A DNA stretch of 64,000 nt from Escherichia coli (GTDB lineage Bacteria; Pseudomonadota; Gammaproteobacteria; Enterobacterales; Enterobacteriaceae): the NCBI RefSeq assembly GCF_030013595.1, contig NZ_CP122768.1; one strand, written 5' to 3'. Every line of letters starts with the position of its first letter. Within the stretch, counting starts at the first letter, position 1. Positions 5,957 to 41,928 of the stretch are shown here, piece after piece. The notes under the pieces are model-generated. The model saw nothing but the letters and a program-made list of their open reading frames with translations, made no database searches and had not been told where the DNA came from. Position numbers and translations under genes: made by a program.

Positions 5957-6820
5957 ATGAAACAACACCAATCGGCGGATAATTCTCAGGGCCAGCTTTA
6001 CATTGTACCGACGCCAATCGGCAATCTGGCGGATATCACCCAGCGTGCGTTGGAGGTATTACAGGCCGTTGATCTGATTGCCGCCGAGGATACGCGTCAC
6101 ACCGGTTTATTGCTGCAACATTTTGGGATTAATGCTCGGTTGTTTGCGCTGCACGACCATAACGAACAACAAAAAGCCGAAACGCTGCTGGCGAAGCTGC
6201 AAGAGGGGCAAAACATTGCGCTGGTTTCCGATGCCGGAACGCCTCTAATTAACGATCCTGGCTACCATCTGGTGCGTACCTGCCGTGAAGCGGGGATTCG
6301 CGTGGTGCCGCTACCCGGGCCGTGTGCTGCTATCACTGCGTTAAGCGCCGCGGGTTTACCATCCGATCGTTTTTGTTATGAAGGCTTTTTACCTGCCAAA
6401 TCAAAAGGCCGCCGTGATGCGCTAAAAGCCATTGAAGCGGAGCCGCGCACGCTGATTTTTTATGAATCTACCCACCGTCTGTTAGATAGCCTGGAAGATA
6501 TCGTAGCGGTATTAGGCGAATCCCGCTATGTCGTTCTGGCGCGTGAGCTGACCAAAACCTGGGAAACCATTCACGGCGCGCCCGTTGGCGAGCTGCTGGC
6601 GTGGGTCAAAGAAGATGAAAACCGTCGCAAAGGCGAAATGGTACTGATTGTCGAAGGCCATAAAGCACAGGAAGAAGACTTACCCGCTGATGCCCTGCGC
6701 ACGCTGGCGCTGTTGCAGGCAGAACTGCCACTGAAAAAAGCGGCGGCGCTGGCAGCAGAAATTCACGGCGTGAAGAAAAATGCGCTGTATAAGTATGCAC
6801 TGGAGCAGCAGGGAGAGTGA
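5957..6820 (+). CDS. rsmI: 16S rRNA 2'-O-ribose C1402 methyltransferase RsmI
   Basis: ORF 5957..6820 (287 aa); tetrapyrrole-methylase fold sequence; divergent from lpoA as in K-12. Confidence 0.9.
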
Positions 6821-6869
6821 TTACAGGCGTCGCAGCAGGAATAGCGTTGCAACGCCTGTAGCAGGCGAG

Positions 6870-7637
6870 TTAACGACGACACATCTCATCAATCATGCAT
6901 GTGAAATAGTTATGCAGCCATAAAAATGAAGCCGGGATAGCGGTAGAGACTTTAGCCGTGAGAAAACGTTCTGTCGCATCCTGCTTTCCTTCGCCAGTCA
7001 CCAGTAACAAAACTTCGCGGGCATTGAGAATATCCTTCAGGCCTAAGGTGATCCCACGAGTCACGGGACGGCCCGCGGTTTTTAACATCTCATGTTGCTG
7101 TGTTCTGGCATCAAGTTGACTGATATGGCAGGCCGGTTGCAGGTTTTCTCCCGGTTCGTTCAGCCCAAGATGACCGTTTTTCCCCAATCCGAGAACGCAT
7201 AAATCCAGACCGCCTTTGCGCGCAATCAGGTTCGTTACCCGTTCGCACTCTGTCTCATTTATCTCTTCGGAGCGAAAGCTGATGAGCTGGTCTTCACGTA
7301 GCCCCAGCGGCTGCACGATATGCTGTTGCAGGAAAGTTTCGCAGGTACCAGGCATCGTTAATGGCAGATCCACCCATTCGTCGAGCTTCACGAAGGTGAG
7401 CTGGCTGACATCAACCTGCTGCTGGTGGATTTTTTCTACCAGATAATGATACGTCAGTAATGGCGTGGCTCCGGTCGCCAGGCAAATCACGGCATCCGGT
7501 TTGCTACGGATCACGGCCAATAAATATTCGCTGGCACGTTCACTTAACGCCGTATAGTTTTCAACTTGTTGAAGGGTTTGCACAGGATGAAATTCCTTAA
7601 GTAAAGAGGCACCGCCAGACGCAGTGCCTCGTTCCAT
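6870..7637 (-). CDS. agaI: Galactosamine-6-phosphate deaminase/isomerase AgaI
   Basis: ORF 6870..7637; NagB-like glucosamine-6-P deaminase family; last gene of aga cluster. Confidence 0.8.
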   Translation of the reverse strand: MERGTASGGASLLKEFHPVQTLQQVENYTALSERASEYLLAVIRSKPDAVICLATGATPLLTYHYLVEKIHQQQVDVSQLTFVKLDEWVDLPLTMPGTCETFLQQHIVQPLGLREDQLISFRSEEINETECERVTNLIARKGGLDLCVLGLGKNGHLGLNEPGENLQPACHISQLDARTQQHEMLKTAGRPVTRGITLGLKDILNAREVLLLVTGEGKQDATERFLTAKVSTAIPASFLWLHNYFTCMIDEMCRR

Positions 7638-8429
7638 TTACAAAATGCCGAATGCGGAACAAACAATAGAGAGCACAAAAGTCACGCCGATTAACAGCAC
7701 CGGATGCGCTTTTTTCACCCGCAGGAAGTAATACATCAGCAGGGTGTAGGCCATCGGTAAAATATTCGGGAAGACTTTATCGAAGAAATCCTGCTGCAGC
7801 GCGACGCTGTGGGTACTGTCGATGGCAAACGATGTCACCACGTTAATATGCACATACGAAGCGATCAGTCCGCCGATTACCGTGATCCCGAGGATGGTTG
7901 CCGAACGAGCAATCATCTGCGAGTTCTCTCGCACTTTATCGATCGCCTTCACGCCGACTGAATAACCGACGTGGGTCCAGCCGACGCGCAGGAAGAAGAT
8001 AAGCAGGTAAACGGCGAAAAATAGAATCGGCCCCAGCAAGTTTCCCTGGCTGGCAAATGATGAGCAAATTCCCGCCATAATCGGCAATAAGGTAAACCAG
8101 AAAATCGCATCGCCAATCCCGGCGATTGGGCCAAACAGTGCCACTTTGAGGCCTTTAATGGTGTCGCGGTTTTCTCCTTTTTCTTCCATCGAAATTAATA
8201 ACCCCATCAGGAATCCGACCAGATTCGGGTGGGTATTAATAAATTCGAGGTTATCTTTCATCGCCGCGCTTAGGCCCGGTTTGTCGTCCTTATAAATCTT
8301 TTTCAGGATCGGCAACATCGCCCAGGTAAAACCGCCCGCCTGCATCCTTTCGTAGTTAAAGCTCGCTTGCAGCAGTGACGAACGAAAGCCCAGACGGGTG
8401 ATATCTTTTTTACTGATTTCAGATCCCAT
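7638..8429 (-). CDS. agaD: PTS galactosamine-specific EIID component AgaD (263 aa)
   Basis: ORF track 7638..8576; start trimmed to MGSEISKKDITRLGFRSSLLQASFNYERMQ (mannose-family IID signature); 11-nt overlap with agaC. Confidence 0.8.
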   Translation of the reverse strand: MGSEISKKDITRLGFRSSLLQASFNYERMQAGGFTWAMLPILKKIYKDDKPGLSAAMKDNLEFINTHPNLVGFLMGLLISMEEKGENRDTIKGLKVALFGPIAGIGDAIFWFTLLPIMAGICSSFASQGNLLGPILFFAVYLLIFFLRVGWTHVGYSVGVKAIDKVRENSQMIARSATILGITVIGGLIASYVHINVVTSFAIDSTHSVALQQDFFDKVFPNILPMAYTLLMYYFLRVKKAHPVLLIGVTFVLSIVCSAFGIL

Positions 8430-9222
8430 TGCTGTAGTCCTCTTCTTCATTTTTACTGGCAACGGGCTGCGGTTGCGCTTGCTGCCGGGATTTCGCATTG
8501 AAAAACTCATACACCGCAAAGCCTGCGCCCAGTACGGCAACCGGCAACAGGTTGCTGACCTGGATGTAGCAAACAAACAGGAAACCGGCGATCAGGTAAG
8601 GGATATATTGCGCTTTGAACATTACGCGCAGCAGCAAGCCAAAACCAACGGCAGGCAGAATACCGCCAGCCACTTCAAAGCCGTGGGTCAGCCAGGCGGG
8701 CATCGCTTTCACCAGCGCCTGCATCGCCCCTTGTGCCAGGTAAGTACAGAGGAAAGCAATCACCGCATACGCTGAAGCAACGATGAGCATCGTTGTCCAG
8801 TTAAGTCGGGAAAACGCTGCCGTATCCGCTTCTTTCGCGCATTTATCGGCTTTGGTCATAAATAATGAGAAAGCAGAATAGAAGAACAGAATGACATACT
8901 GCATTAACAAACTAAACGGCAGGCCAAGACCAATTGCTGTTTTGGCATCAACGCCCGTAGACCATGCAATGACGGTGGTCATCAGACCCGCCATAATCGG
9001 GTTGGGCGGCTGAACACCACCTGCAGGGGTTAATCCGGCGAAAGCCAACTCTGTCAGACCACCGGTAATTAAGCCAGTCTGAATATCACCGAGAATAGCG
9101 CCAGTTAGGGTACAAACGATTATCGGGCGGAATAAAAATAAGGCTTCCAGCCAAAAATCAATCCCCAGAACGAAAACTAACGCCGCCAGGGATAATCCCT
9201 GAAGTAGGGTTATTTCATGCAT
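8419..9222 (-). CDS. agaC: PTS galactosamine-specific EIIC component AgaC (267 aa)
   Basis: ORF 8419..9222; mannose-family IIC membrane protein. Confidence 0.85.
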   Translation of the reverse strand: MHEITLLQGLSLAALVFVLGIDFWLEALFLFRPIIVCTLTGAILGDIQTGLITGGLTELAFAGLTPAGGVQPPNPIMAGLMTTVIAWSTGVDAKTAIGLGLPFSLLMQYVILFFYSAFSLFMTKADKCAKEADTAAFSRLNWTTMLIVASAYAVIAFLCTYLAQGAMQALVKAMPAWLTHGFEVAGGILPAVGFGLLLRVMFKAQYIPYLIAGFLFVCYIQVSNLLPVAVLGAGFAVYEFFNAKSRQQAQPQPVASKNEEEDYSNGI

Positions 9223-9260
9223 TTTTATTACCTCAAACCAATATTAAGGCGATTTTAGAT

Positions 9261-9737
9261 TTAGTCAGGGATTTGTTCTTTTTGATCGCCAGGGACGTCC
9301 TGAATGAAAACATTCACGCCACGTTGTTTAATAAAACGTAAGTCCGTGAGATCCTGGTCATCGACATAAACTTTACTGCTGATTTGCTTTTTCCCTTCCG
9401 AGAAATGCATATTGCCGACGTTGACATCTTTCAGGTCAATGCCACCTTCTACCAATTTACGTACCGTTTGTGGCGTGCGGCAAATCAGGAAGATCTTCTG
9501 ATGCGGTGCAGCTTTGCCGATGACGTTAATGGTTTTTTCGATAGTAAAGAAACGAATGCCAAAGCCGTAGGTTTCCGCGGTAATACCCATTAATTTCTGT
9601 TGAATATCATCGTTAGCGACAACATCATCCACGACTACCAGCAGATTTGCACCGATGGTGGATGTCCAGGTCACGCCAACCTGACCGTGAACCAGACGGT
9701 TATCAATACGGGTTAAGAGAATATTTGGACTGCTCAT
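9261..9737 (-). CDS. agaB: PTS galactosamine-specific EIIB component AgaB (158 aa)
   Basis: ORF 9261..9737; mannose-family IIB with N-terminal LTRIDNRLVHGQV phospho-His motif. Confidence 0.85.
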   Translation of the reverse strand: MSSPNILLTRIDNRLVHGQVGVTWTSTIGANLLVVVDDVVANDDIQQKLMGITAETYGFGIRFFTIEKTINVIGKAAPHQKIFLICRTPQTVRKLVEGGIDLKDVNVGNMHFSEGKKQISSKVYVDDQDLTDLRFIKQRGVNVFIQDVPGDQKEQIPD

Positions 9738-9903
9738 TGTGTAATCCTCACCATAAAGTTGAATAATATAATTTTTTTAAATATATTATTGTTGCGGTAT
9801 TGTACTGATGTATTTATTAAGGTTTAGTTATCTCCTTTACCATTAAGGCACTCCCCGATATTAATCGGGAAGTACATTGGGATAAATCATAAAAAACTAA
9901 TGA

Positions 9904-10776
<873 letters not shown>

Positions 10777-11931
10777 TTATGCCTGCCACGGATGAATGAT
10801 TACGCCTTGCACCACGCGGTTAACGGTGCCGCTGGCTGATGGGGTATCCGGCGTATTGCCCATGTGCAGCGACTGCATCAGTGCAAACGTCTGGGCGTAC
10901 ATCAGGAAGCAAAATGCCTGCTCAACGTCGATAAAGTGACGGGACGGCGGCAGGATGATATGTGGACCGGCGGTAATAACGTCGTTGCTTTCCGCGGCGA
11001 TAGCGATTACGCGTATCGCCTGGTTATCGCGGCGAAGTTCAGCCAGCAGATCAAGATCATACTGACGGGTGTAAGGGTGGCTGGAGACAAATACCACCAC
11101 CAGCGTTTCGTTATCGACCAGCGATTTCGGGCCATGACGGAATCCGGTCGGGGAATCATAAAAGGCCGCCAGTTTACCCGCCGTCAGTTCCAGCACTTTC
11201 AGCGCCGACTCGCGTGCTGCGCCCTGTAAGCCACCGCTGCCGAGATAAACGATCCGTTTCCACGGTGCGTAACCAAACACACCTTCGCTGAAATCGCCCA
11301 GTGAGGTCAGGATCGCCTGGCAACGTTCCGCCACGTCGCGGAAGCTCTGGCTGTTGATCGTCTCAGGTGCGAAAACCGCGAGGCAGCTGGCCATCATGGT
11401 GGTAATGCTGCTGGTCATCGCAAAGCCGCGATCGTGCGTTTCTGCGGGCATCAGCAGGGCAAACGCGTTGTCGCTGTTGATCGCATTTTGGTAAAGAGCG
11501 CCCGCTTCGTTGCAGGTGATCGGCAGGTGATAGCACTCGGGTACAAATTGATTTGCCAGTTCCACGGCGGCGACGCTTTCCGGGCTGTTGCCGGATCGAC
11601 CGAAGGAGATCAACAGCAGTGGATGAGCTGGATTCAGGTAGTCCATCGGATTGGTGACCAGATCGGTGGTCGGTACGGCGCTGAAGTTTTTACCTGTATG
11701 GCTGGCGAGCCACGGCGCGATGATGTCACCGATAAATGCCGAGGTTCCGGCTCCGGTCAGGATTACCCGCAGATTCTCTTTGCGCAGTAACGGTTCAAGG
11801 AAGTTATTGAGCGCGGGACGTAGCGCGTCGATGTTGGTGAGTGAACGGATCCATGCGCGAGGCTGATGGCGGATCTCTTCTTCAGTCCATGTACCGGTTG
11901 CGGCAGCAGCAGGGGTGTAATTTTCTGGCAT
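10777..11931 (-). CDS. agaS: Galactosamine-6-phosphate deaminase/isomerase AgaS (SIS domains, 384 aa)
   Basis: ORF 10777..11931; tandem SIS domains. Confidence 0.9.
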   Translation of the reverse strand: MPENYTPAAAATGTWTEEEIRHQPRAWIRSLTNIDALRPALNNFLEPLLRKENLRVILTGAGTSAFIGDIIAPWLASHTGKNFSAVPTTDLVTNPMDYLNPAHPLLLISFGRSGNSPESVAAVELANQFVPECYHLPITCNEAGALYQNAINSDNAFALLMPAETHDRGFAMTSSITTMMASCLAVFAPETINSQSFRDVAERCQAILTSLGDFSEGVFGYAPWKRIVYLGSGGLQGAARESALKVLELTAGKLAAFYDSPTGFRHGPKSLVDNETLVVVFVSSHPYTRQYDLDLLAELRRDNQAIRVIAIAAESNDVITAGPHIILPPSRHFIDVEQAFCFLMYAQTFALMQSLHMGNTPDTPSASGTVNRVVQGVIIHPWQA

Positions 11932-12149
11932 AACTCAATCCTTAGTCTGATGAACTTGACGTCGGGCGTTGTCGCTTTCGCTTACCTTTCGTTTCATTTC
12001 ACTTGGTGATGTCTTTCGTTGATTAAAATCTATAGAAAAGAAACTGAAAGTTCAATGGAGAAAAAAGAAATAAAACGAAATTTGTGATCGTTGAAAGAAA
12101 AGACAAGGGAAGATTAAAGAATTGCATGATGACGTTGCTATGTGCACCG

Positions 12150-12220
12150 ATTGCCGGATGCGGCGTACCGTAGGTCGCATAAGACGCGTCAGCGTCGCAT
12201 CCGACACCGCTGCACAGATC
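12150..12220. repeat. REP/BIME palindromic units in agaS-agaA intergenic region
   Basis: gccggatgcggcgtaccgtaggtcgcataagacgcgtcagcgtcgcatccgacaccg matches the REP/PU consensus pattern. Confidence 0.55.
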
Positions 12221-12281
12221 AAAAAGAAAGAAAAAGAAAGGCCTTACGGGGGAAGTGAAGGCCCAATAAAGGAGCAAACCA

Positions 12282-13415
12282 TCAAAACGAAGCTAATTGA
12301 CCCTGAATCCAGATTTGTTGCACATGCAGCCCGCTATCCAGCGCAACGACGCTGGCGCGTTTGCCCGGTTTAAGCGATCCCAGAACATCATCAACACCCA
12401 GCATACGCGCCGGATGCAGCGACGCCATATGGATGGCTTCCGCAGGCGTTACGTCCGTCAACTCGACCATATTGCGCACTGCCGCATCAACAGACAGCGT
12501 ACTGCCCGCCAGTCCACCGGACGCGGTACGGACAACGCCACCGTGCATCTGCACTTCTTCGCCACATAACGTATAGCGACCATCCGGCATCCCGGCTGCC
12601 TGCATCGCGTCGGTGATCAGCACGATTCTCTCTTTCGCACAGCAACAACACAGCGACATCGCCGCCGGATGCACATGATGACCATCGGCTATCAGTTCCA
12701 GCCAGGCGCGCTTGTCCGTTAATCCCGCGCCAACCATTCCCGGTTCGCGGTGATGTAAACCTGTCATCCCGTTATAGCAATGCACCAGGCCGTCGGCACC
12801 AGCGTCAAACGCGGCACGGGTTTGTTGCCAGGTCGCCGCGCTATGCCCCAGTATCACCCGTACGTTTTGCTGTTTAAGATGGCGGATGGCCTGCAATGCC
12901 CCTTCTTTTTCCGGTGCCAGCGCTACCACGCGCAAGGTGTGCTGAGAAACGGCAATCAATTGATCCAGCTCGGCAATTTCCAGCTCGCGAAACAGCTCCG
13001 GCGGATGCGCGCCTTTATTCTGCGGCGTGAAGTACGGTCCTTCGAGATAACTCCCCAGCACTTGCGCACCAGGTCCGCCGCGTTGGCAACGTTGAGCAAT
13101 ACGTTTCAGCGCCGCATGAATGGTATTAAGCGGCGCGGTTACGGTGGTCGGTAACCAACTGCCGACACCTTCGCGTGCTTTGTGCATTGCCAGCTTGTCG
13201 AGCACATCCGGCGCGTCATCCATTACATCAACGCCCGCACCACCATGTACATGGGTGTCGATGTAAGCGGGGCAGAGCAGTTCCGCATCGCGTTCAGTCA
13301 CGCCCACTGGAATCGGTTCGATTGCTGAGATTACACCGTCAGCAATACGCAACTGATGGTCATCGAGCCATCCCTCTTCAGTCAGCAGCCTTCTGGCGCG
13401 CAGAACGTGTGTCAT
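12282..13415 (-). CDS. agaA: N-acetylgalactosamine-6-phosphate deacetylase AgaA, full length (377 aa)
   Basis: ORF track 12282..13436; start trimmed to MTHVLRARRLL; NagA-like amidohydrolase with metal-binding His motifs; full length here, unlike the truncated K-12 allele. Confidence 0.85.
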   Translation of the reverse strand: MTHVLRARRLLTEEGWLDDHQLRIADGVISAIEPIPVGVTERDAELLCPAYIDTHVHGGAGVDVMDDAPDVLDKLAMHKAREGVGSWLPTTVTAPLNTIHAALKRIAQRCQRGGPGAQVLGSYLEGPYFTPQNKGAHPPELFRELEIAELDQLIAVSQHTLRVVALAPEKEGALQAIRHLKQQNVRVILGHSAATWQQTRAAFDAGADGLVHCYNGMTGLHHREPGMVGAGLTDKRAWLELIADGHHVHPAAMSLCCCCAKERIVLITDAMQAAGMPDGRYTLCGEEVQMHGGVVRTASGGLAGSTLSVDAAVRNMVELTDVTPAEAIHMASLHPARMLGVDDVLGSLKPGKRASVVALDSGLHVQQIWIQGQLASF

Positions 13416-13846
13416 ATTCCTTCCTCGACCGGACATTCTTCATGGCAGCGGCCTAACTCGTCCACCAAACTGGTCAGCCCACGGTGTCCACACTCCAGCG
13501 CCTGCACACGGAACTCTTCACCGCTTAACCCTTCGCGCTCCAGCACCATCTCCAGTAGCAGTTGCAAATTGGTGCCGGTGATCACTTCACAGCCCGGTTT
13601 TTGCATCGCCAGCGTTGAAGCTACGCGAAACGGCGTGCCGCCCAGCAAATCCGTCAGAAAAACAATGCCGTCTTCACAATCGAGTTGGGCGATGGCCTCT
13701 TCAAGCTGCGATGTAAGCTGCGCGGTGCTTGAGGTTTCGGGAAAATCGATGGCAATAAACTGCGATTGCTCGCCGAGGATTTGCTTCATTGCTTTTTCCA
13801 TGCCACTGGCAAATCCGCCATGCCCTGTCAAAATAATACTTAACAT
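13412..13846 (-). CDS. agaF: PTS EIIA component AgaF (144 aa)
   Basis: ORF 13412..13846; mannose-family IIA sequence MLSIILTGHGGFASG; ATGA overlap with agaA start. Confidence 0.8.
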   Translation of the reverse strand: MLSIILTGHGGFASGMEKAMKQILGEQSQFIAIDFPETSSTAQLTSQLEEAIAQLDCEDGIVFLTDLLGGTPFRVASTLAMQKPGCEVITGTNLQLLLEMVLEREGLSGEEFRVQALECGHRGLTSLVDELGRCHEECPVEEGI

Positions 13847-13863
13847 CTAATACCTCATTGTAT

Positions 13864-14742
13864 TTAAAGGAAATGACAGAATTTACCGACGATGCCGAGT
13901 ACCACGGTAACTGCAATCAGGCGCAGCGGACTCCAGCCGCGGCGTACCAGCCAGAACATGGTCAGGGTGTAGACCAGCGGTAAGAAGGCAGGCATCAGTT
14001 TGTCGATAACATCAGCCTGTAACTTAACCACTGCGTCGCCAGCGGTGATTTCCAGCGTGGTGCTTAAACGAACATAGGTTGCCACCAGCGCGCCGATTAC
14101 CGTCATCCCAACGATTGACGCAGCATGGCCGACTTTTTTGGTATTCGCTTTAATGAGTGGAATCGCCGCCACGCCCATGCGGTAAGCATAATGCGCCAGA
14201 CCAAAACGCAGCCCCAGGTGTACCACGTTGAACAGAACAATAAATACGACTGCGCCAAGAATGGAGCCTTGTAATGCCAGACTGGCACCAATCCCGCCAC
14301 AAATCGGCAGTAGCGTTAGCCAGAACATCGCATCGCCAATCCCGCCAAGCGGCGCACCGACGGCAATTTTGGTGCTCTGAATACTGTTAACGTCCTGCTT
14401 AGAACGCTCCATCGCAAGGATAATGCCGATAACAAACGTCACCAGAAACGGATGGGTATTGAAGAAACCCATATGCCCCTTCATGGCGCGCGCCAGGTCG
14501 CGTTTATTAGTGTGGATCTTTTTCAGAGCAGGCAGCAGACCGTACAACCAGCCGGAAGCCTGCATACGTTCGTAGTTAAAAGACGCTTGTAACAGCATGG
14601 AACGCCAGGCGACGCGGTTGATATCTTTTTTTGTCAGCTCCGCGCCAATACTCTGATCTTCATACACGTTTTCATTGACGCCTGTCAGCAGTGTTTCTTC
14701 GTTTTCACTGACGTTCGGCAGGGTGGTTTGATTAGATGCCAT
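13864..14742 (-). CDS. agaE: PTS N-acetylgalactosamine-specific EIID component AgaE
   Basis: ORF 13864..14748; paralogous to AgaD (shared FNYERMQA motif). Confidence 0.8.
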   Translation of the reverse strand: MASNQTTLPNVSENEETLLTGVNENVYEDQSIGAELTKKDINRVAWRSMLLQASFNYERMQASGWLYGLLPALKKIHTNKRDLARAMKGHMGFFNTHPFLVTFVIGIILAMERSKQDVNSIQSTKIAVGAPLGGIGDAMFWLTLLPICGGIGASLALQGSILGAVVFIVLFNVVHLGLRFGLAHYAYRMGVAAIPLIKANTKKVGHAASIVGMTVIGALVATYVRLSTTLEITAGDAVVKLQADVIDKLMPAFLPLVYTLTMFWLVRRGWSPLRLIAVTVVLGIVGKFCHFL

Positions 14743-15511
14743 CTTCAAATTCCTCTTTCTGTGCCGCAGGTTGAGTCGGTTCAGGAGATTTACGCAGCAG
14801 GTCGATCAGCGCCATCGCCAGCGCGGCGGCAGCAATAGCCAGCACCGGTAACTTGAGCCAGGCTGCGGCAACAAAGCCCAGGATGAAGTAGGGGATGTAG
14901 ACGTTTTTCATCATGATTTTCAGCAGCACGGCAAAACCGATTGCTGGCATGATGCCGCCCGCGACGCCGAGGCCGTCGATTAATCGTTGCGGCAGGACAT
15001 CAATGATGGTTTTGGCATGTTCTGCGCCGAAGTAGATAGGCAGGAAAGCGCAGAGAAAATAGAAAGTGCCGAGTGCCAACAGTGCCAGATAGTTCACGCG
15101 TTCAATGCCGCGTGTATCGGCGTTCTCCGCCATCCGGTCGCAGCGGGACATTACGCCAGACATCACCGAGAACAGGAAGGTAATCCCCATCTGTACTGCG
15201 ACAGCGAAAGGTACGGCGACACCGACCGCGACATCGGGTTTCACGCCAGTAGTAATGGCAAACGCCGTGCCGACGATAGTACCGATAATCACGTTAGGCG
15301 GCTGTGCGCCCGCCAGCGGGGCCAGCCCCATCCACACCAGTTCCAGCGTACCGCCGGTTAAAATACCGGTATGCAGATCGCCAAGTACCAGCCCGACTAA
15401 CGGGCCGAGGACCACCGGGCGGTGCATATGGGTTAAGCCGTTAAACATATCCAGGCCAGCGATAAAGGCGATAATGCCCAACGCGAATGCCTGCAACAGA
15501 CTGATTTCCAT
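14732..15511 (-). CDS. agaW: PTS N-acetylgalactosamine-specific EIIC component AgaW, full length (259 aa)
   Basis: ORF 14732..15511; paralogous to AgaC. Confidence 0.8.
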   Translation of the reverse strand: MEISLLQAFALGIIAFIAGLDMFNGLTHMHRPVVLGPLVGLVLGDLHTGILTGGTLELVWMGLAPLAGAQPPNVIIGTIVGTAFAITTGVKPDVAVGVAVPFAVAVQMGITFLFSVMSGVMSRCDRMAENADTRGIERVNYLALLALGTFYFLCAFLPIYFGAEHAKTIIDVLPQRLIDGLGVAGGIMPAIGFAVLLKIMMKNVYIPYFILGFVAAAWLKLPVLAIAAAALAMALIDLLRKSPEPTQPAAQKEEFEDGI

Positions 15512-15521
15512 GATGAATCCC

Positions 15522-15995
15522 TCAAAGTAATTTAAAGAGGTCCACAGCAGGCTCTGTCGGGACGCCCTGAACGAAGCATTCCACCCCAGCGGCTTTCAGG
15601 TCGTTAAATGCTGCGATATCGCCCGCATCCACAGAAACCGTTTTGGCGATTTGTTGCTTGCCATTGGCGTAGTGCATATTGCCAACGTTAATGCGATTCA
15701 CCGGAACGCCACCTTTCACCAGCGTCAGGAAATCGGCAGGTGTTTTACAAACCAGCAGGATTTTCTGTCGATCGGCGGCGCGATGAATGTTGTCGATGAC
15801 TTTTTGCAGCGTCCAGAAACGTACGGCGATCCCTTCTGCCAGTACCATTTCCATCAGGTTTTGTTGTACCGGATCTTCGGCAACCTCATCGTTGGCTACC
15901 AGCACCAGATTTGCCCCCGCAAATCCGACCCACTGAACGCCGACCTGACCGTGAATCAAGCGTTCATCAATCCGGCTTAAAACAATATTTGGCAT
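15522..15995 (-). CDS. agaV: PTS N-acetylgalactosamine-specific EIIB component AgaV (157 aa)
   Basis: ORF track 15522..16031; start trimmed to MPNIVLSRIDERLIHGQ; paralogous to AgaB. Confidence 0.8.
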   Translation of the reverse strand: MPNIVLSRIDERLIHGQVGVQWVGFAGANLVLVANDEVAEDPVQQNLMEMVLAEGIAVRFWTLQKVIDNIHRAADRQKILLVCKTPADFLTLVKGGVPVNRINVGNMHYANGKQQIAKTVSVDAGDIAAFNDLKAAGVECFVQGVPTEPAVDLFKLL

Positions 15996-16017
15996 AGCGT
16001 GTTCCTCTTTGTTTTGC

Positions 16018-17298
16018 TTATTGGCCTTCACAGGCTGTGTGGTACTGCGCCAGGATGTCCTGAATATGGTTGATAATGAGTTCCCGTGGCGTCGGTTGCA
16101 GCTCGCCGGAGCGAACTTTCACGTACTGCAGCGGCAGATACTGACTGATCAGCGGTAGCGGAATTGGTGAATCCGCCAGATTACGAACCAGATGAGCGAA
16201 AGCGTCATCAATCTGGCTGTCTGGCCAGTAATAGCGCACGCGATCTGAGTAGCTATAACCACGCGCCAGACGACGCGCGTTGCCGTCACCGTGGTAGTGG
16301 CTTTGCCAGTATTCCGGGCGGTCGAGCATCACGTTTTCCAGCACCTGACGCAGACCAGAACAGGCTTTTGCTGGCACCAGTTCTTCTTCAATCGCTGCCA
16401 GAGAGAACAGAGCTTCACGCAGGGCGAAGGTCAGCGCCGGGCCAACTTTCAGAATGGCAAAGTGGTCAATCACCAGCTGGCGCAGCGATTGCGGCGTTTG
16501 ATAATCGGTAGAGTGCGCTTCGAAAATCAGCGTTTCGTAGTTTTCGACCATCTGGCTTAAGGCGGTCGCTTTAGCTGGCTGATAATCAATAACGTTGGTG
16601 TGATCGAATTCGACGCCGGGTTGTACCACCAGAGCAATGATGCGTGGCCAGATGGCACTCAGACCTTGCTTTTCAAAGGCGTGACGATGGGCTTCCAGCG
16701 TGGCACGGGCGGCATCCGGCGTGGTGACCGCCAGCTCGCTTAAGGTTTCATGCGCGCCGCCAGGTACCGGTACTTCGGTCCCAATGACATACACGAGATC
16801 GGCTTCGCCAAAGTGTTCACGACAGGTTTCTTCCGCCACTTTCGCCAGACGTGCGGCGCGTTCAGCCACGATGTCATCAGTTAAGGGAACCGGATCGTCC
16901 TGACAGGACATGCTGCAATCAAGGTGAATTTTTTTGAATCCTGCCGCCACGTAGCTTTTAATCAAATCATCGGCATTGGCCATTGCCTGAGCGGCAGGCA
17001 GGCTTTGCCAGCGGTTTGGACCCAGATGGTCGCCACCCAGAATCAACGCATCCTGTGGGAAATTCAACGAGTCGGCGAGCTGACAAACAAAGCCGCGAAA
17101 ATCGGCGGGCGTCATTCCGGTATAACCGCCGAACTGGTCCACCTGATTGGAGGTTGCTTCAATCAGTAACGGCGTTTGGTTTGCACTGGCGTAGCGGATT
17201 GCAGCTTCCAGCACCAGCGGATGTGCGGAACAAACGGCATAAATCCCATTTGTTTTGCCCTCTTTGTGCTGTCTCACCATTTCTGTCAGATGTTTCAC
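16018..17298 (-). CDS. kbaZ: Tagatose-bisphosphate aldolase non-catalytic subunit KbaZ (426 aa)
   Basis: ORF 16018..17298; GatZ/KbaZ family sequence. Confidence 0.9.
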
Positions 17299-17546
17299 TT
17301 TCCTCTCCAGTTCAGATTACTGCGATATTAATCTTTCGTTTTGTTTCAGTTGATACTGCGCCATGGTGAGATAAAAATAAAACGAAAGATAATAGTTTTC
17401 TGATCTGATTCACAAAAGAAACATAATGAAAGCCACTGAAACGAGAGTAGCTTGCGCCAATGGGTAAGGTGGGCTTGCATTTGCTTAATAGAAAGGCGTT
17501 AATAGGCAAAACGAAATGAAACGAAAGTTTTACGAAAGGACTTACT
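17299..17546. promoter_or_regulatory. Divergent kbaZ / agaR control region (AgaR operator and promoter region expected)
   Basis: AT-rich 248-bp spacer between divergent kbaZ (-) and agaR (+); individual sites not mapped. Confidence 0.45.
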
Positions 17547-18356
17547 ATGAGTAATACCGACGCTTCAGGTGAGAAGCGAATGACAGGCACCAGCGAGCGA
17601 CGAGAACAGATCATTCAGCGTCTGCGACAGCAAGGGAGTGTGCAGGTTAACGATCTGTCGGCATTGTATGGCGTATCTACTGTGACGATCCGCAACGATC
17701 TGGCGTTTCTGGAAAAGCAGGGGATCGCTGTGCGTGCCTATGGCGGCGCGTTGATCTGCGATAGCACCACGCCGTCAGTCGAGCCATCAGTGGAAGATAA
17801 AAGCGCGCTGAACACCGCGATGAAACGCAGCGTTGCGAAAGCTGCCGTTGAGTTGATTCAGCCAGGTCATCGGGTGATCCTCGATTCCGGGACCACCACT
17901 TTTGAGATTGCTCGTCTGATGCGCAAGCACACTGACGTAATTGCGATGACCAACGGTATGAACGTGGCTAATGCGTTGCTGGAAGCGGAAGGCGTTGAGC
18001 TGCTGATGACCGGCGGGCATTTGCGCCGTCAGTCGCAATCTTTTTACGGCGATCAAGCTGAACAATCGCTGCAAAATTACCACTTCGATATGCTGTTTCT
18101 TGGTGTAGATGCGATCGATCTGGAGCGCGGCGTCAGCACACATAATGAAGATGAAGCCCGTTTAAACCGCCGGATGTGCGAAGTTGCGGAACGGATCATC
18201 GTGGTCACCGATTCCAGTAAATTCAATCGTTCCAGTTTACATAAGATCATTGATACTCAACGTATCGACATGATCATTGTTGATGAAGGCATTCCTGCGG
18301 ATAGCCTGGAAGGGCTGCGAAAGGCTGGGGTTGAAGTGATTCTGGTCGGGGAGTGA
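17547..18356 (+). CDS. agaR: DeoR-family repressor of the aga regulon AgaR (269 aa)
   Basis: ORF 17547..18356; N-terminal HTH ([19 protein letters not shown]) and DeoR C-terminal sensor domain. Confidence 0.9.
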
Positions 18357-18410
18357 GAAAGGGTGCCCGCTGGTCAACACGAATGCGTTCGGCGGGCATT
18401 GTGAACACCA

Positions 18411-18875
18411 TCAATGGGGTTCTTCTGTCTCTCGGGTGAGGGTTTCCCAGTCGGCAGGAGGATGTCCTCTTTTTAACATTTTGCTGAATACGGTATAGGC
18501 ATCTGTTTTTTTACCGTAGGTGCGCAGAGTGTTTTCATCGTTCATCCATCCCAGAATGATGACTTTCTCTTTTTCACTATAACGAAAGAAGAGACGATAA
18601 CGACCAGCACCAAATTTTACCCGTGACCAGTCTTTATTTTTCCCAGAGCCTAACGACTTGCCATGACGGAATGCCGGTGATGATGGATTGACCGTGATAT
18701 GCTCCTCAATCACTTTATGGACTACCGCCAATAACTTTGTGGCGGCTTTTCTCTGATAATTTTCAGGATCTTTTCCCTTTAATGTCTCGACTTCGGCAAC
18801 TAAAGCGTCGTAGGTTTCCTGAAAACAGGGATGAGCATATAGCGCCCAACCATTAACCCTTTGTGGAAAATCCAT
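18411..18875 (-). CDS. yhaV: Type II toxin YhaV (ribosome-dependent mRNA interferase, 154 aa)
   Basis: ORF 18411..18875; start overlaps prlF stop by 1 nt; recognised YhaV sequence. Confidence 0.9.
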   Translation of the reverse strand: MDFPQRVNGWALYAHPCFQETYDALVAEVETLKGKDPENYQRKAATKLLAVVHKVIEEHITVNPSSPAFRHGKSLGSGKNKDWSRVKFGAGRYRLFFRYSEKEKVIILGWMNDENTLRTYGKKTDAYTVFSKMLKRGHPPADWETLTRETEEPH

Positions 18876-19210
18876 TATTCGTCGTCGCCAATCTCATCAT
18901 CAATGTTGACGTCCATGCCAGCGACAAGTTTCTTTCCTTGTTGAATGTTGAATGGACGAGTTTTTTGCGGGTTGTTCTGGATATCTGCATCCAGAAAACG
19001 CAAAAATGCATTCATAGTATGATCCTCCTGTTCATCTCCCAGTCGGCACATAAATACTTGCCCACCAGGCAGAATTTCGTAATGAATGCTGTCCTGGCCT
19101 GGCTTCAGTTTTAAGGCCTCACGCACTGGCGCGGGGATAGTTGTTTGTCCGCGTATCGTGACCTTTGATTCAGTGGTCAGTACAGCGTGAGAGCGAGCAT
19201 TAGCGGGCAT
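18875..19210 (-). CDS. prlF: Antitoxin PrlF/SohA (AbrB/SpoVT-type DNA-binding, 111 aa)
   Basis: ORF 18875..19210; acidic C-terminal tail (DVNIDDEIGDDE); immediately upstream of yhaV. Confidence 0.9.
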   Translation of the reverse strand: MPANARSHAVLTTESKVTIRGQTTIPAPVREALKLKPGQDSIHYEILPGGQVFMCRLGDEQEDHTMNAFLRFLDADIQNNPQKTRPFNIQQGKKLVAGMDVNIDDEIGDDE

Positions 19211-19304
19211 GATTCACTGTCCTTTTACAGCCTGTTTTCTGCTCAAATTATAAGCTTGAACTAAGGTAATGCAAATGCATTATTAATGGACGTGGGGACT
19301 TTAA

Positions 19305-19336
19305 ACAATAAAAACATGGCACTAAGGCCATGTTTT
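19305..19336 (-). terminator. Putative intrinsic terminator downstream of garD
   Basis: Minus-strand hairpin aaaacatggcc-ttagt-gccatgtttt followed by T-rich tract, just 3' of garD stop. Confidence 0.5.
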
Positions 19337-19358
19337 GCGAGGGACGTTCCAAAAGAAA

Positions 19359-20930
19359 TCAGGTCACCGGTGCCGGGTTAAACACCGCCAGCTGGTTATG
19401 CAGTCCCCATTGATCTGAGAAGGTTTTCTTCTTCCCGCTGGCGACGTCGAGAATAAAGTGGAACAACTTCCAGCCCACCTCTTCAATGCTCTCTTCGCCG
19501 GTAGCGATAGTGCCCGCGTTAATATCCATTAAATCAAACCAGCGGTTCGCCAGCTCGGTGCGGGTCGCCATTTTAATGACGGGTACCGCCATCAGGCCGT
19601 ACGGCGTACCACGGCCGGTCGTAAACACTTGCACGGTAATCCCTGAAGCCACCTGTTGTGTGCCACAGACAAAATCGCTGGCTGGCGTCGCGGCGTAAAT
19701 TAATCCGCGTTTAGTCGGGCGTTGACCGGGCGACAGCACTTCAACAATTGCGCTTTTACCCGATTTAGCAATGGAGCCGAGCGCTTTCTCCACCACATTT
19801 GCCAGACCGCCTTTCTTGTTGCCCGGCGAAGGGTTGGCGCTGCGGTCGGTTTTTCCCATATTGAGATAGTTATCGTACCACTCCATCTCCTCCAGCAGCC
19901 GTTTGCCGACCTCTTCGTTCACTGCGCGTGGTGTCAGCAGATGGATCGCGTCACGCACTTCCGTGACTTCTGAAAACATCACCGTTGCGCCGCAGCGCAC
20001 CAGTAGATCAGACGCATACCCAACCGCCGGGTTTGCCGTTACGCCAGAAAACGCATCGCTGCCGCCGCACTGCATGCCGACAACCAGTTCTGAAGCCGGA
20101 CAGGTTTCTCGCTGCCGTTGATTCAGTTTGTGCAAATGGCGTTCGGCGACCTGCAAAATATCCTCGACCATGGACTGAAAGCCGACATGCTTTTCATCCT
20201 GCAAACTGACAATGCTGGCGCTTTCTACTGGAATAGCTTGCACATCATCCGTTCCAGTCAGCAGGCGCTCAGGCTGCAACTTTTCACAACCCAGACCAAT
20301 CACCATTACTTCGCCGCCAAAGTTAGGGTTCAGCGAAATATTGTGGATGGTACGAATAGGCACAACTGCCGCCGGTGCATTAATCGCCACGCCACAACCG
20401 TACAAATGATTCAGCCCCACCACGCCATCGACGTTCGGGTATTTCGGTAGCAGATCGCGTTCAATGATTTTTACTACATAGTCCACCACGCCTGCTACAC
20501 AGTGGACGCTGGTGGTGATGCCGAGCAGGTTTTTAGTGCCCACGCTGCCATCGGCATTGCGATAGCCCTCAAAGGTGTATCCTTCCAGCGGCGGTAAGGG
20601 GTCCGGGACTTTGGTTGCCAGTGGCAGCGTGTGTAACGGCGGCGCTTCCGGTAGTACAACCATTGATTCGTCGATCCAGCTTCCGCGTGGGATTGCGCGC
20701 ACGGCGTAACCAATCACTTCGCCATAACGAATAATTTCACCATTAGCCGGAATGTCCAGCAATGCGACTTTATGCCCCTGGGGAATATGTTCAATTAATT
20801 CCAGCCCATCCGGAAAACGCGTTCCTGCTTTCAGGCCATTATCATTAACAATAATTGCCACATTATCTGTGTCGTGAACTTTTATATAAAACGCAGTTGG
20901 CGTTTCTTGTCTGATTTCGATGTTGGCCAT
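19359..20930 (-). CDS. garD: Galactarate dehydratase GarD (523 aa)
   Basis: ORF 19359..20930; UxaA-family (SAF + dehydratase) sequence paralogous to UxaA at 53823. Confidence 0.9.
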
Positions 20931-21304
20931 TGTGCAATATTCTCCAGCCAGGGGTTATTAAAATGAGGACCTGGTCTCATTTAAAAATAAATGACTTCAT
21001 TGGGTGAAATAAGAATGTCAGGAGTTTAAACGCAGAAATGTGATCAATGTCAATCATTTCAGGGATTGCAGTGCCGCACGGTAAGGTAAAGCGCAAATCT
21101 GTGCTTTAGCGCGCAACCTTATGTGCATATGCTCAAAATAATATTTAAATAATATTAATTAAATTAGCATTTGCACAATGATTATTATTCTCGCGCTGCT
21201 TATACTAATTCCCGAGTTCATTGCCGTAACGGTATAAATAAAACTCATAAATAACACCTTCCCCATAATAATAAAAATCAGCATAAGTACCCGAGGTAAA
21301 TAAA
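20931..21304. promoter_or_regulatory. Divergent garD / garPLRK control region
   Basis: 374-bp AT-rich spacer between divergent operons; CdaR-dependent promoters expected here; sites not individually resolved. Confidence 0.45.
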
Positions 21305-22639
21305 ATGATTCTGGACACCGTTGACGTAAAAAAGAAAGGCGTGCATACCCGCTATTTAATATTACTGATTATTTTTATTGTTACCGCCGTTAACTACGCC
21401 GATCGTGCAACGCTGTCTATTGCTGGTACCGAAGTGGCAAAAGAGTTGCAGTTAAGTGCGGTTTCGATGGGTTACATCTTCTCCGCTTTTGGCTGGGCCT
21501 ACCTGCTGATGCAAATCCCCGGCGGCTGGTTGCTTGATAAGTTTGGCTCGAAAAAAGTTTACACCTACAGCCTCTTTTTCTGGTCGCTGTTCACCTTCCT
21601 GCAAGGCTTTGTTGATATGTTCCCGTTGGCCTGGGCAGGGATCTCCATGTTCTTTATGCGCTTTATGCTCGGCTTCTCGGAAGCGCCATCATTCCCGGCG
21701 AACGCCCGTATTGTCGCCGCCTGGTTTCCGACAAAAGAACGTGGTACTGCCTCCGCCATCTTTAACTCGGCGCAATATTTCTCGCTGGCGCTCTTTTCGC
21801 CGCTGCTTGGCTGGCTGACTTTCGCCTGGGGCTGGGAGCACGTCTTTACCGTTATGGGGGTAATTGGTTTTGTGCTGACGGCGCTGTGGATCAAGTTGAT
21901 TCATAACCCGACAGATCACCCACGTATGTCTGCGGAAGAGCTGAAGTTTATCTCAGAAAATGGCGCGGTGGTCGATATGGACCACAAAAAGCCGGGCAGT
22001 GTGGCAGCAAGCGGTCCCAAGCTGCATTACATCAAGCAATTGCTCTCTAACCGCATGATGCTGGGCGTATTTTTCGGACAATATTTTATCAACACCATCA
22101 CCTGGTTCTTCCTCACCTGGTTCCCAATTTATCTGGTGCAGGAAAAAGGCATGTCGATTCTGAAAGTGGGTCTGGTCGCCTCGATTCCGGCACTGTGTGG
22201 CTTTGCGGGCGGCGTGCTGGGAGGTGTCTTCTCGGATTATCTGATCAAACGCGGTTTGTCCCTGACCCTGGCACGTAAGCTACCGATTGTGCTGGGAATG
22301 TTGCTGGCTTCCACCATCATCTTATGTAACTACACCAACAACACCACGCTGGTGGTCATGCTGATGGCGCTGGCTTTCTTTGGCAAAGGATTTGGTGCGC
22401 TGGGCTGGTCAGTGATTTCTGACACCGCGCCGAAAGAGATTGTTGGCCTCTGCGGCGGCGTCTTTAACGTCTTTGGCAATGTTGCCTCCATTGTCACTCC
22501 ACTGGTGATTGGCTATCTGGTAAGTGAACTGCACTCCTTCAATGCAGCACTGGTTTTCGTGGGATGTTCAGCGCTGATGGCGATGGTCTGCTACCTCTTC
22601 GTAGTTGGCGACATTAAACGTATGGAATTGCAGAAATAA
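21305..22639 (+). CDS. garP: Galactarate/glucarate/glycerate MFS transporter GarP (444 aa)
   Basis: ORF 21305..22639; MFS anion:cation symporter sequence. Confidence 0.9.
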   Translation: MILDTVDVKKKGVHTRYLILLIIFIVTAVNYADRATLSIAGTEVAKELQLSAVSMGYIFSAFGWAYLLMQIPGGWLLDKFGSKKVYTYSLFFWSLFTFLQGFVDMFPLAWAGISMFFMRFMLGFSEAPSFPANARIVAAWFPTKERGTASAIFNSAQYFSLALFSPLLGWLTFAWGWEHVFTVMGVIGFVLTALWIKLIHNPTDHPRMSAEELKFISENGAVVDMDHKKPGSVAASGPKLHYIKQLLSNRMMLGVFFGQYFINTITWFFLTWFPIYLVQEKGMSILKVGLVASIPALCGFAGGVLGGVFSDYLIKRGLSLTLARKLPIVLGMLLASTIILCNYTNNTTLVVMLMALAFFGKGFGALGWSVISDTAPKEIVGLCGGVFNVFGNVASIVTPLVIGYLVSELHSFNAALVFVGCSALMAMVCYLFVVGDIKRMELQK

Positions 22640-22654
22640 GCAAAGGTATAAGCG

Positions 22655-23425
22655 ATGAATAACGATGTTTTCCCGAATAAATTCAAAGCCGCATTGGCTG
22701 CGAAACAGGTACAAATTGGTTGCTGGTCAGCACTCTCTAACCCGATTAGCACTGAAGTTCTTGGTTTGGCTGGGTTTGACTGGCTGGTGCTGGATGGCGA
22801 ACATGCGCCAAACGATATCTCCACGTTTATTCCGCAGTTAATGGCCCTGAAAGGCAGCGCCAGCGCGCCAGTAGTACGAGTGCCGACCAACGAGCCGGTA
22901 ATTATTAAGCGTCTTCTGGATATCGGTTTCTATAACTTCCTGATTCCTTTTGTAGAAACAAAAGAGGAAGCAGAGCAGGCGGTGGCATCAACCCGTTATC
23001 CACCGGAAGGCATTCGCGGCGTCTCCGTTTCTCACCGCGCCAATATGTTTGGCACCGTGGCGGATTATTTCGCTCAGTCGAACAAGAACATCACCATTCT
23101 GGTCCAGATAGAAAGTCAGCAGGGCGTAGATAACGTCGATGCCATTGCCGCTACCGAAGGTGTAGACGGTATCTTCGTCGGCCCCAGCGATCTGGCTGCG
23201 GCATTAGGCCATCTCGGCAATGCCTCGCACCCGGATGTACAAAAAGCAATTCAGCACATTTTTAACCGTGCCAGTGCGCACGGCAAACCCAGCGGTATCC
23301 TCGCACCGGTCGAAGCCGATGCGCGTCGTTATCTGGAATGGGGTGCGACGTTTGTGGCTGTCGGCAGCGATCTCGGCGTCTTCCGCTCTGCCACTCAGAA
23401 ACTGGCTGATACCTTTAAAAAATAA
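22655..23425 (+). CDS. garL: 5-keto-4-deoxy-D-glucarate (2-dehydro-3-deoxygalactarate) aldolase GarL (256 aa)
   Basis: ORF 22655..23425; HpcH/HpaI aldolase family. Confidence 0.9.
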
Positions 23426-25619: not shown

Positions 25620-25996
<377 letters not shown>

Positions 25997-40444: not shown

Positions 40445-40975
40445 GTGCAGTTTATGAAACATTCATTTGAAGTAAAACTTGCCGCTGTAAATCATTACCT
40501 GGCTGGTCATGCAGGCATCATTTCTACGGCAAAACTCTTTCAACTTTCTCACACCAGCCTCTCACACTGGATTAATCTTTTTCTTCTTCACGGTCCTCGT
40601 GCACTGGATTGCAGACACAAGCGTAGCTATTCTCCTGAAGATAAACTTTGCGTGGTTCTTTATGCTCTCGGGCATTCTGAGTCTCTACCCCGGGTAGCTG
40701 CCCGGTTTAACATTCCCAGCCACAACACGGTTAAAAACTGGATAAAAGGCTACCGCAAATCTGGTAATGAGGCCTTTATCAGGCGCAGGAAGGAGAAAAG
40801 CATGACCCGTTCTGATGATACCCATGAAAACGAGGCAAACATGACGCCGGAAGAGATGAAGAATGAGCTGCGTTATCTTCGCGCAGAAAATGCATATCTG
40901 AAAGCCATGCAGGAGCATCTCCTGGAAAAAAAGCGCCAGGAGCTGGAGAAAAAACGAAAGTCATCCGGAGCCTGA
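40445..40975 (+). CDS. IS3-family transposase OrfA (HTH, leucine-zipper region; 176 aa)
   Basis: ORF 40445..40975; in-frame A_AAA_AAG slippery heptamer at 40927-40933 near the 3' end. Confidence 0.85.
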   Translation: MQFMKHSFEVKLAAVNHYLAGHAGIISTAKLFQLSHTSLSHWINLFLLHGPRALDCRHKRSYSPEDKLCVVLYALGHSESLPRVAARFNIPSHNTVKNWIKGYRKSGNEAFIRRRKEKSMTRSDDTHENEANMTPEEMKNELRYLRAENAYLKAMQEHLLEKKRQELEKKRKSSGA

Positions 40976-41079
40976 GGTGCGGACACTGCCAGTCTGACCT
41001 GTTAAAGGCTGCAGGGCTGGCCAGAAGCACGCTGTACTACCAGCTGTCACTGCAGAAGGCTAAGGACAAGTATGCTGAT

Positions 41080-41928
<849 letters not shown>

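Follow-up and report, generated by a model that had tools for sequence, protein, structure and literature searches.

An intact aga/gam amino sugar cluster in a non-K-12 Escherichia coli chromosome

The 64-kb stretch of DNA analyzed here (the window) is Escherichia coli chromosome running from yhbO to fadH, and it carries an aga cluster of 13 genes (positions 6870 to 18356) that is very probably the complete wild-type aga/gam regulon of the species. This intact cluster is real, already known, and unremarkable, since the intact state is the norm of E. coli and the deletion found in K-12 is the oddity. The 14-kb region of the cluster is 100% identical to a RefSeq record of the pig-feces strain HCP5S3_I2, with the same gene order and annotation, and is matched at an identity of at least 95% in 5,425 of 5,426 complete E. 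coli genomes; hence, the cluster is no chance pattern.

Organization of the cluster

Two operons lie on the minus strand 350 bp apart, kbaZ-agaVWEF-agaA (12282 to 17298) and agaS-kbaY-agaBCD-agaI (6870 to 11931), and agaR (17547 to 18356) is divergent from the kbaZ operon. Both the map of open reading frames and the RefSeq annotation of the identical record give this order (agaR, then kbaZ-agaV-agaW-agaE-agaF-agaA, then agaS-kbaY-agaB-agaC-agaD-agaI), and all 13 reading frames are open, each with a length divisible by three and a single, terminal stop codon. An earlier note on this DNA had placed the complete locus at 12282 to 17298, which is correct for the first operon and falls short of the whole cluster. 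It was right that both operons are uninterrupted, and its description of their junctions as tight or overlapping fits all gaps from kbaZ to agaA (22, 10, −11, 17, and −4 bp) and from agaS to agaI (12, 166, 38, −11, and 0 bp) except the 166 bp between kbaY and agaB, a gap of equal length in the annotated coordinates of K-12, B, and C.

A scan of 10 of the proteins against NCBIfam profiles placed all of them above the curated cutoffs. Nine matched a gene-specific equivalog over the full model length, and AgaS matched the AgaS subfamily model minus its first position; AgaB, AgaC, and AgaD, compared instead with their counterparts in E. coli C and B, match these exactly or to within one residue. 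An Rfam scan of the whole window gave no match within the aga cluster, only rnpB (25620 to 25995). A foreign or recombinant patch was considered and rejected, as mismatch counts in 500-bp bins relative to four strains correspond to an ordinary mosaic divergence of 0 to 3%. The bin holding the agaA-agaS intergenic region is the exception to this range. A search for the inverted repeats at the ends of an IS1397 copy did not delimit the element.

The first operon and agaR

The first gene, kbaZ (16018 to 17298, minus strand), has a GTG start and encodes the 426-aa noncatalytic subunit of tagatose-bisphosphate aldolase (NF012002, 897.3 bits versus a cutoff of 707), with 8 to 9 substitutions relative to E. 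coli C and B. The three components of the N-acetylgalactosamine phosphotransferase system (PTS) follow on the same strand: agaV (15522 to 15995), coding for IIB (157 aa; NF008508, 319.9 bits versus 180) and identical in protein sequence to E. coli B; agaW (14732 to 15511), coding for IIC (259 aa; NF040757, 410.8 bits versus 300), identical to B and one substitution from C; and agaE (13864 to 14742), coding for IID (292 aa; NF040760, 617.6 bits versus 500), identical to both. Also on the minus strand, agaF (13412 to 13846) encodes the 144-aa IIA common to both transporters (NF040761, 220.9 bits versus 130, residues 1 to 144 of 144), with one substitution, L43Q, relative to C and B, and its stop overlaps the start of agaA in an ATGA. 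The product of agaA (12282 to 13415, minus strand), N-acetylgalactosamine-6-phosphate deacetylase (377 aa; TIGR00221, 292.4 bits versus 225.65, full length), has the length of its E. coli C and B counterparts and carries 6 to 8 substitutions. On the plus strand, agaR codes for a 269-aa DeoR-family repressor of the regulon (NF040755, 465.9 bits versus 260) that differs from the C and B proteins only by V12M.

AgaF, AgaV, AgaW, and AgaE also match mannose/sorbose-family models, although only AgaV does so above the model cutoff (243.8 versus 163.6). AgaF falls just under that of the general IIA-man model (93.2 versus 98.35), and AgaW and AgaE are likewise below the family cutoffs; each of the three passes its own specific equivalog. 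The four components are separate proteins, as in a mannose-family PTS, and histidines are present at position 9 of AgaF, 15 of AgaV, and 17 of AgaB, which would be the phosphorylatable residues of IIA and IIB in this family.

The second operon

All six genes are on the minus strand. The 384-aa product of agaS (10777 to 11931), galactosamine-6-phosphate deaminase/isomerase (TIGR02815, 630.8 bits versus 529.2), matches PDB 3c3j end to end and has ten substitutions relative to E. coli C; S39P, D202E, and M306I were seen in none of the five strains used for comparison. The PGAP label "SIS domain-containing protein" is no sign of a defect in AgaS, given a score well above the AgaS-family cutoff. 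The catalytic subunit of tagatose-1,6-bisphosphate aldolase is encoded by kbaY (9904 to 10764; 286 aa; NF009375, 666.7 bits versus 542) and is identical in C, B, and K-12. The galactosamine PTS comprises IIB, from the intact frame of agaB (9261 to 9737; 158 aa, one substitution relative to C or B); IIC, from the intact frame of agaC (8419 to 9222; 267 aa, with Gln at codon 8), which is WP_000544489.1 and identical in C, B, and K-12; and IID, from the intact frame of agaD (7638 to 8429; 263 aa), annotated as agaD in the identical RefSeq record, with the same sequence as in B and a single substitution relative to C. Last, agaI (6870 to 7637) encodes a 255-aa galactosamine-6-phosphate isomerase homolog of uncertain role (NF007291, 472 bits versus 271). 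Its last ca. 13 residues differ from the 251-aa form of K-12, B, and C, ending in ...HNYFTCMIDEMCRR as in strains 144 and PCN033, an alternative C terminus that follows from the absence of yraHIJK.

The K-12 deletion and its frequency

The earlier note had stated that K-12 carries a deletion that removes agaE and agaF and truncates agaW and agaA, and alignment to MG1655 (NC_000913.3) bears this out, in agreement with the report that K-12 lacks agaE and agaF and keeps remnants of 5′ agaW and 3′ agaA (Hu et al. 2013, PMC3668189). Window positions 6913 to 12840 and 15136 to 20000 align to MG1655 as two pieces that overlap by 10 bp in K-12, which therefore lacks 12831 to 15135, i.e., 2,305 bp joined at a GGTCGC microhomology. 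The lost segment holds agaF and agaE in full, together with the 5′ portion of agaA and the 3′ portion of agaW. In functional terms, what K-12 has really lost is its transporter, namely IIC, IID, and the IIA that both systems share. In the K-12 allele, which is 2.3 kb shorter, agaW′ runs into ′agaA at GGTCGCAGCG. The window holds the flanks GGTCGCCGCG (12831 to 12840) and GGTCGCAGCG (15136 to 15145) 2,305 bp apart, with agaE and agaF between them.

Among 5,426 complete E. coli genomes, 4,944 (ca. 91%) contain the segment deleted in K-12, a count of the presence of the 2.3-kb segment and not of the intactness of all 13 genes, and only 371 have the K-12 junction. Having the segment intact thus rules out no more than K-12 and its relatives and is not a distinguishing mark. 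Its use is limited to quickly marking strains that are neither K-12 nor its close relatives and to predicting a routine growth phenotype. The cluster enables E. coli in the gut to use N-acetylgalactosamine, a sugar derived from mucin; as the default state of the species, this is of little significance.

Regulation

Sites resembling the AgaR operator were sought with a pattern based on the consensus that Ray and Larson reportedly gave in 2004. The search returned six in the 64 kb, versus 0.13 expected by chance, all within two aga promoter regions: the agaA-agaS intergenic region (PS promoter region, 11983 to 12243), with sites at 11983 to 12006, 12061 to 12084, and 12220 to 12243, and the divergent kbaZ-agaR region (PZ and PR, 17330 to 17530), with sites at 17330 to 17353, 17412 to 17435, and 17507 to 17530. 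The intact agaR would thus be accompanied by candidate tandem operators upstream of kbaZ, agaR, and agaS, where AgaR has been reported to bind (PMC3668189; PMC5018945). The literature searched for an AgaR operator consensus stated none, giving only general mentions that AgaR binds tandem repeats ahead of agaZ, agaR, and agaS. Simple scans for sigma-70 promoters and terminators between 6700 and 18500 showed no enrichment over shuffled sequence and lent no support to the promoters.

Predicted pathway and phenotype

Without inducer, the DeoR-type AgaR is expected to occupy the tandem operators of the kbaZ/agaR and agaS promoters; when N-acetylgalactosamine (Aga) or galactosamine (Gam) is available, the two operons would be transcribed. 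AgaV, AgaW, and AgaE (IIB, IIC, and IID) would then import and phosphorylate Aga, and AgaB, AgaC, and AgaD would do the same for Gam, with the single IIA, AgaF, as the phosphate source for both transporters, fed by the general PTS proteins. AgaA would deacetylate Aga-6-phosphate, with NagA as a possible substitute, and AgaS would deaminate and isomerize Gam-6-phosphate to tagatose-6-phosphate, which a kinase from outside the cluster would convert to tagatose-1,6-bisphosphate for cleavage by KbaY with KbaZ into triose phosphates. The general PTS proteins and the tagatose-6-phosphate kinase are encoded outside the window. The gene roles implied by the earlier note are partly outdated, as AgaS, and not AgaI, is the galactosamine-6-phosphate deaminase and is essential for both sugars, whereas agaI is dispensable and NagA can stand in for agaA (PMC3668189). 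From the gene content, we reasonably infer that the strain would be Aga+ and Gam+.

This phenotype could be lost by missense in genes that are all intact, leaving the strain Aga− and/or Gam−, with AgaS S39P/D202E/M306I or AgaF L43Q as the top candidates. We consider this unlikely. A single change in AgaF, Gly91Ser, is enough to abolish Aga use in O157:H7 isolates from the spinach outbreak (PMC3668189), AgaS is essential and differs at three residues from all five comparison strains, and the very recent accession of AgaS in the matching RefSeq record points to a rare allele. However, this allele exceeds the family cutoff by 101 bits, and position 39, which is Ser in E. coli and Glu in two PDB relatives, varies among distant homologs, so that loss of AgaS function is not expected; D202E and M306I are conservative, AgaF L43Q also occurs in strain 144 under the same protein accession, and no known inactivating mutation was found in the window. 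It is very unlikely that the putative rare AgaS allele, alone or with the 255-aa AgaI tail, alters or abolishes amino sugar use in the pig-gut strain, which would make that strain a natural Aga/Gam variant despite its intact-looking cluster. There is next to no chance that the locus is only seemingly complete through a hidden frameshift, internal stop, or assembly error in agaW, agaE, agaF, or agaA, a reading refuted by translation (one terminal stop per gene and lengths divisible by three), by profile matches running end to end, and by comparison with E. coli C and B, which have the same lengths and, in B, identical AgaE, AgaW, and AgaV. The four genes are thus full length, as the earlier note had claimed, and none of the frameshifts or stops that it might have missed turned up.

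Comparison with known systems

K-12 MG1655, with the deletion allele and an Aga− Gam− phenotype, has the same flanking genes as the window and shares 9 of its 13 aga cluster genes, at ca. 97.8 to 98.1% DNA identity, but it lacks agaF and agaE and has truncated agaW and agaA, all four of which the window has complete. This level of identity, together with the lack of the deletion junction and of the yraHIJK operon, confirms that the sequence is not from K-12.

The 2.3-kb segment is also present in O157:H7, with O157:H7 genomes among those listed as covered at 100%. In this lineage, EDL933 and Sakai are Aga+ Gam− and the spinach-outbreak isolates are Aga−, with amber codons at agaC codon 8 (Gln8) and agaI codon 72 (Gln72) and, in the outbreak isolates, AgaF Gly91Ser (PMC3668189). 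None of these alleles occurs in the window, which has Gly91 in AgaF and Gln8 in AgaC; Gln72 is present in AgaI, so there is no O157-type agaI amber.

In strains 144 (from a dog) and PCN033, too, rsmI directly adjoins agaI with no yraHIJK between them, and the tail of AgaI is that of the 255-aa form. Both strains share AgaD, AgaB, AgaE, AgaW, and AgaV with the window residue for residue, at a DNA identity of 98.5 to 98.7%, but they lack its AgaS S39P/D202E/M306I, AgaA A30S/M188I, and KbaZ A13E/N99S/E169V.

The first full description of the cluster concerned E. coli C, a strain whose aga/gam regulon was reportedly treated by Brinkkotter et al. in 2000. That regulon has the same 13 genes in the same order and orientation, with two operons, a divergent agaR, and the same chromosomal position next to prlF-yhaV, at ca. 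97.9% DNA identity to the window. Protein lengths are equal to those of E. coli C and B in 12 of 13 cases, with 0 to 10 substitutions each; three to four proteins (AgaC, KbaY, and AgaE among them) are identical to E. coli C, the rest have 1 to 10 substitutions, and AgaI has 13 differences. The exception in length is AgaI, with 251 aa in E. coli C and 255 aa and a different tail in the window, and the window lacks the yraHIJK fimbrial operon by which agaI is followed in E. coli C. Experiments show E. coli C to be Aga+ Gam+ (Hu, Patel and Mukherjee 2013, PMC3668189).

Gene content and integrity of the aga cluster

A 14-kb query (window 9000-23000) had a match in 5425 of the 5426 complete E. coli genomes searched, with 100% identity to the HCP5S3_I2 chromosome (pig faeces, UK). 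The annotation of that strain, transferred to window coordinates, is that of an ordinary stretch of E. coli chromosome running from yhbO to fadH. The 13 genes for the use of N-acetylgalactosamine (Aga) and galactosamine (Gam) extend over 6870-18356. The first operon, which is exactly the 12282-17298 segment that an earlier note described as the complete locus, consists of kbaZ (16018-17298), agaV (15522-15995), agaW (14732-15511), agaE (13864-14742), agaF (13412-13846), and agaA (12282-13415), separated by 22, 10, -11, 17, and -4 bp. The second, at a distance of 350 bp, is formed by agaS (10777-11931), kbaY (9904-10764), agaB (9261-9737), agaC (8419-9222), agaD (7638-8429), and agaI (6870-7637), with gaps of 12, 166, 38, -11, and 0 bp. 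All lie on the minus strand, the regulator agaR (17547-18356) being the sole aga gene on the plus strand. Translation of all 13 genes gave one stop codon in each, always terminal, and 10 products scored above the curated cut-off of their own specific NCBIfam family, with profile coverage end to end or nearly so. The earlier claims that agaA, agaF, agaE, and agaW are full length and that both operons are uninterrupted were borne out by these open frames and by gaps of -11 to 166 bp within the operons.

An intact prlF-yhaV toxin-antitoxin pair (18411-19210) adjoins agaR, while the annotation of E. coli B ATCC 11303 gives yhaV an internal stop. Elsewhere in the window, the HCP5S3_I2 annotation shows, between cyuA and yhaL (ca. 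40508-41856), the transposase of IS1397, an IS3-family element, with a programmed frameshift and, between yhaH and yqjG (ca. 45275-45733), an IS200/IS605-family tnpA. An inverted-repeat search did not find the IS1397 ends; the accession of the neighboring cyuA product is very recent. Rfam gave a single match in the 64 kb, rnpB (RNase P RNA, class A; 25620-25995, 317.5 bits).

The K-12 deletion and its distribution

When the MG1655 sequence was aligned directly to the window, two pieces (6913-12840 and 15136-20000) matched at ca. 97.8-98.1% identity, with a 10-bp overlap between them in K-12. The window sequence is GGTCGCCGCG in 12831-12840 and GGTCGCAGCG in 15136-15145; K-12 retains a single copy, GGTCGCAGCG. 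The overlap and the single junction copy therefore indicate that 2305 bp were lost from K-12 at a short microhomology. Both agaF and agaE are gone, together with the 3' part of agaW and the 5' part of agaA, consistent with the "2.3 Kb deletion" of the literature (PMC3668189) and with the pseudogenes that RefSeq annotates in K-12. The window carries the undeleted form and, as the earlier note held, is not K-12. Since deamination is done by AgaS and not AgaI, according to post-2000 work, and AgaA is replaceable by NagA (PMC3668189), what harms K-12 functionally is the loss of transporter parts, namely AgaW, AgaE, and the shared IIA AgaF.

The interior of the segment deleted in K-12 (window 12900-15100) was present in 4944 of the 5426 complete genomes, at least 80% covered in 4930. 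A 300-bp probe spanning the K-12 junction matched contiguously in only 371, all with the K-12-type junction at 100% identity, and neither flank of the probe matched in ca. 110 more. One genome with this junction is that of chicken isolate TUM12357 (NZ_CP134370.1; 5.03 Mb), so the deletion also exists outside laboratory K-12 stocks. Intact aga is the species norm and K-12 the exception; the locus is the textbook, majority state, and the interpretation in the earlier note was sound.

Putative operators and the agaI-rsmI junction

The AgaR operator consensus is reported to be WRMMTTTCRTTTYRTTTYNYTTKK (Ray and Larson 2004). With this consensus and up to three mismatches, we found six operator-like sites in the 64 kb versus 0.13 expected, three upstream of agaS (11983-12243) and three between kbaZ and agaR (17330-17530). 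These putative sites would fall at the three promoters, agaS, kbaZ, and agaR, for which AgaR binding has been reported (PMC3668189; PMC5018945). The agaA-agaS intergenic region (11900-12400) was the most variable 500-bp bin of the locus, with 38 differences from E. coli C, 18 from E. coli B, and 1 from strain 144 (dog), and the operator-like sites in it were kept.

The yraHIJK fimbrial operon, which comes after agaI in K-12, B, and C, is absent from the window. There, rsmI (ending at 6820) and agaI (ending at 6870) converge directly, and MG1655 has 5484 bp where the window has 99 bp (6814-6912). Since the breakpoint is within the 3' end of agaI, the gene has a different tail that is four residues longer. 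The window junction also appeared in 1821 of the 5426 genomes and is therefore a common alternative arrangement. Between both genes, a strong hairpin (ca. 6822-6860; -23.9 kcal/mol, z-score -5.4) might act as a terminator in both directions or represent a REP-like element.

Comparison with E. coli C and B

AgaF His9, AgaV His15, and AgaB His17, the phosphorylatable histidines expected in mannose-family IIA/IIB proteins, are all present. The window does not include the genes for the kinase step at tagatose-6-P or for the general PTS proteins. The three published natural inactivating mutations (PMC3668189), AgaF Gly91Ser and CAG-to-TAG changes at agaC codon 8 and agaI codon 72, were sought in the window genes and were absent, the residues being Gly91, Gln8, and Gln72. 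AgaI has 255 residues, of which the last ca. 13 differ from K-12, B, and C and are common to strains 144 and PCN033; the gene is dispensable (PMC3668189).

A defect in AgaS, which is needed for growth on either sugar (PMC3668189), might be suspected, given 10 differences from the E. coli C protein, three of which (S39P, D202E, and M306I) were found in none of the five comparison strains (C, B, K-12, 144, and PCN033). However, window AgaS scored 630.8 bits versus a cut-off of 529.2 in the AgaS-family model, and position 39, occupied by Ser in the crystallized E. coli protein and by Glu in two distant solved homologues, is therefore not a conserved site, so that such a defect is very improbable. 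The HCP5S3_I2 RefSeq record names this product "SIS domain-containing protein" (very recent accession WP_475690667.1), and other genomes "AgaS family sugar isomerase."

Finally, with regard to the Aga+ Gam+ phenotype predicted from the intact genes, we compared the proteins with those of the aga loci of E. coli B ATCC 11303 and E. coli C, the Aga+ Gam+ strain used to elucidate the pathway (PMC3668189). In both, 12 of the 13 proteins equal those of the window in length. AgaC, KbaY, and AgaE are identical in C, and AgaD, AgaC, KbaY, AgaE, AgaW, and AgaV in B, with the remaining ones, AgaI excepted, 1 to 10 substitutions away.
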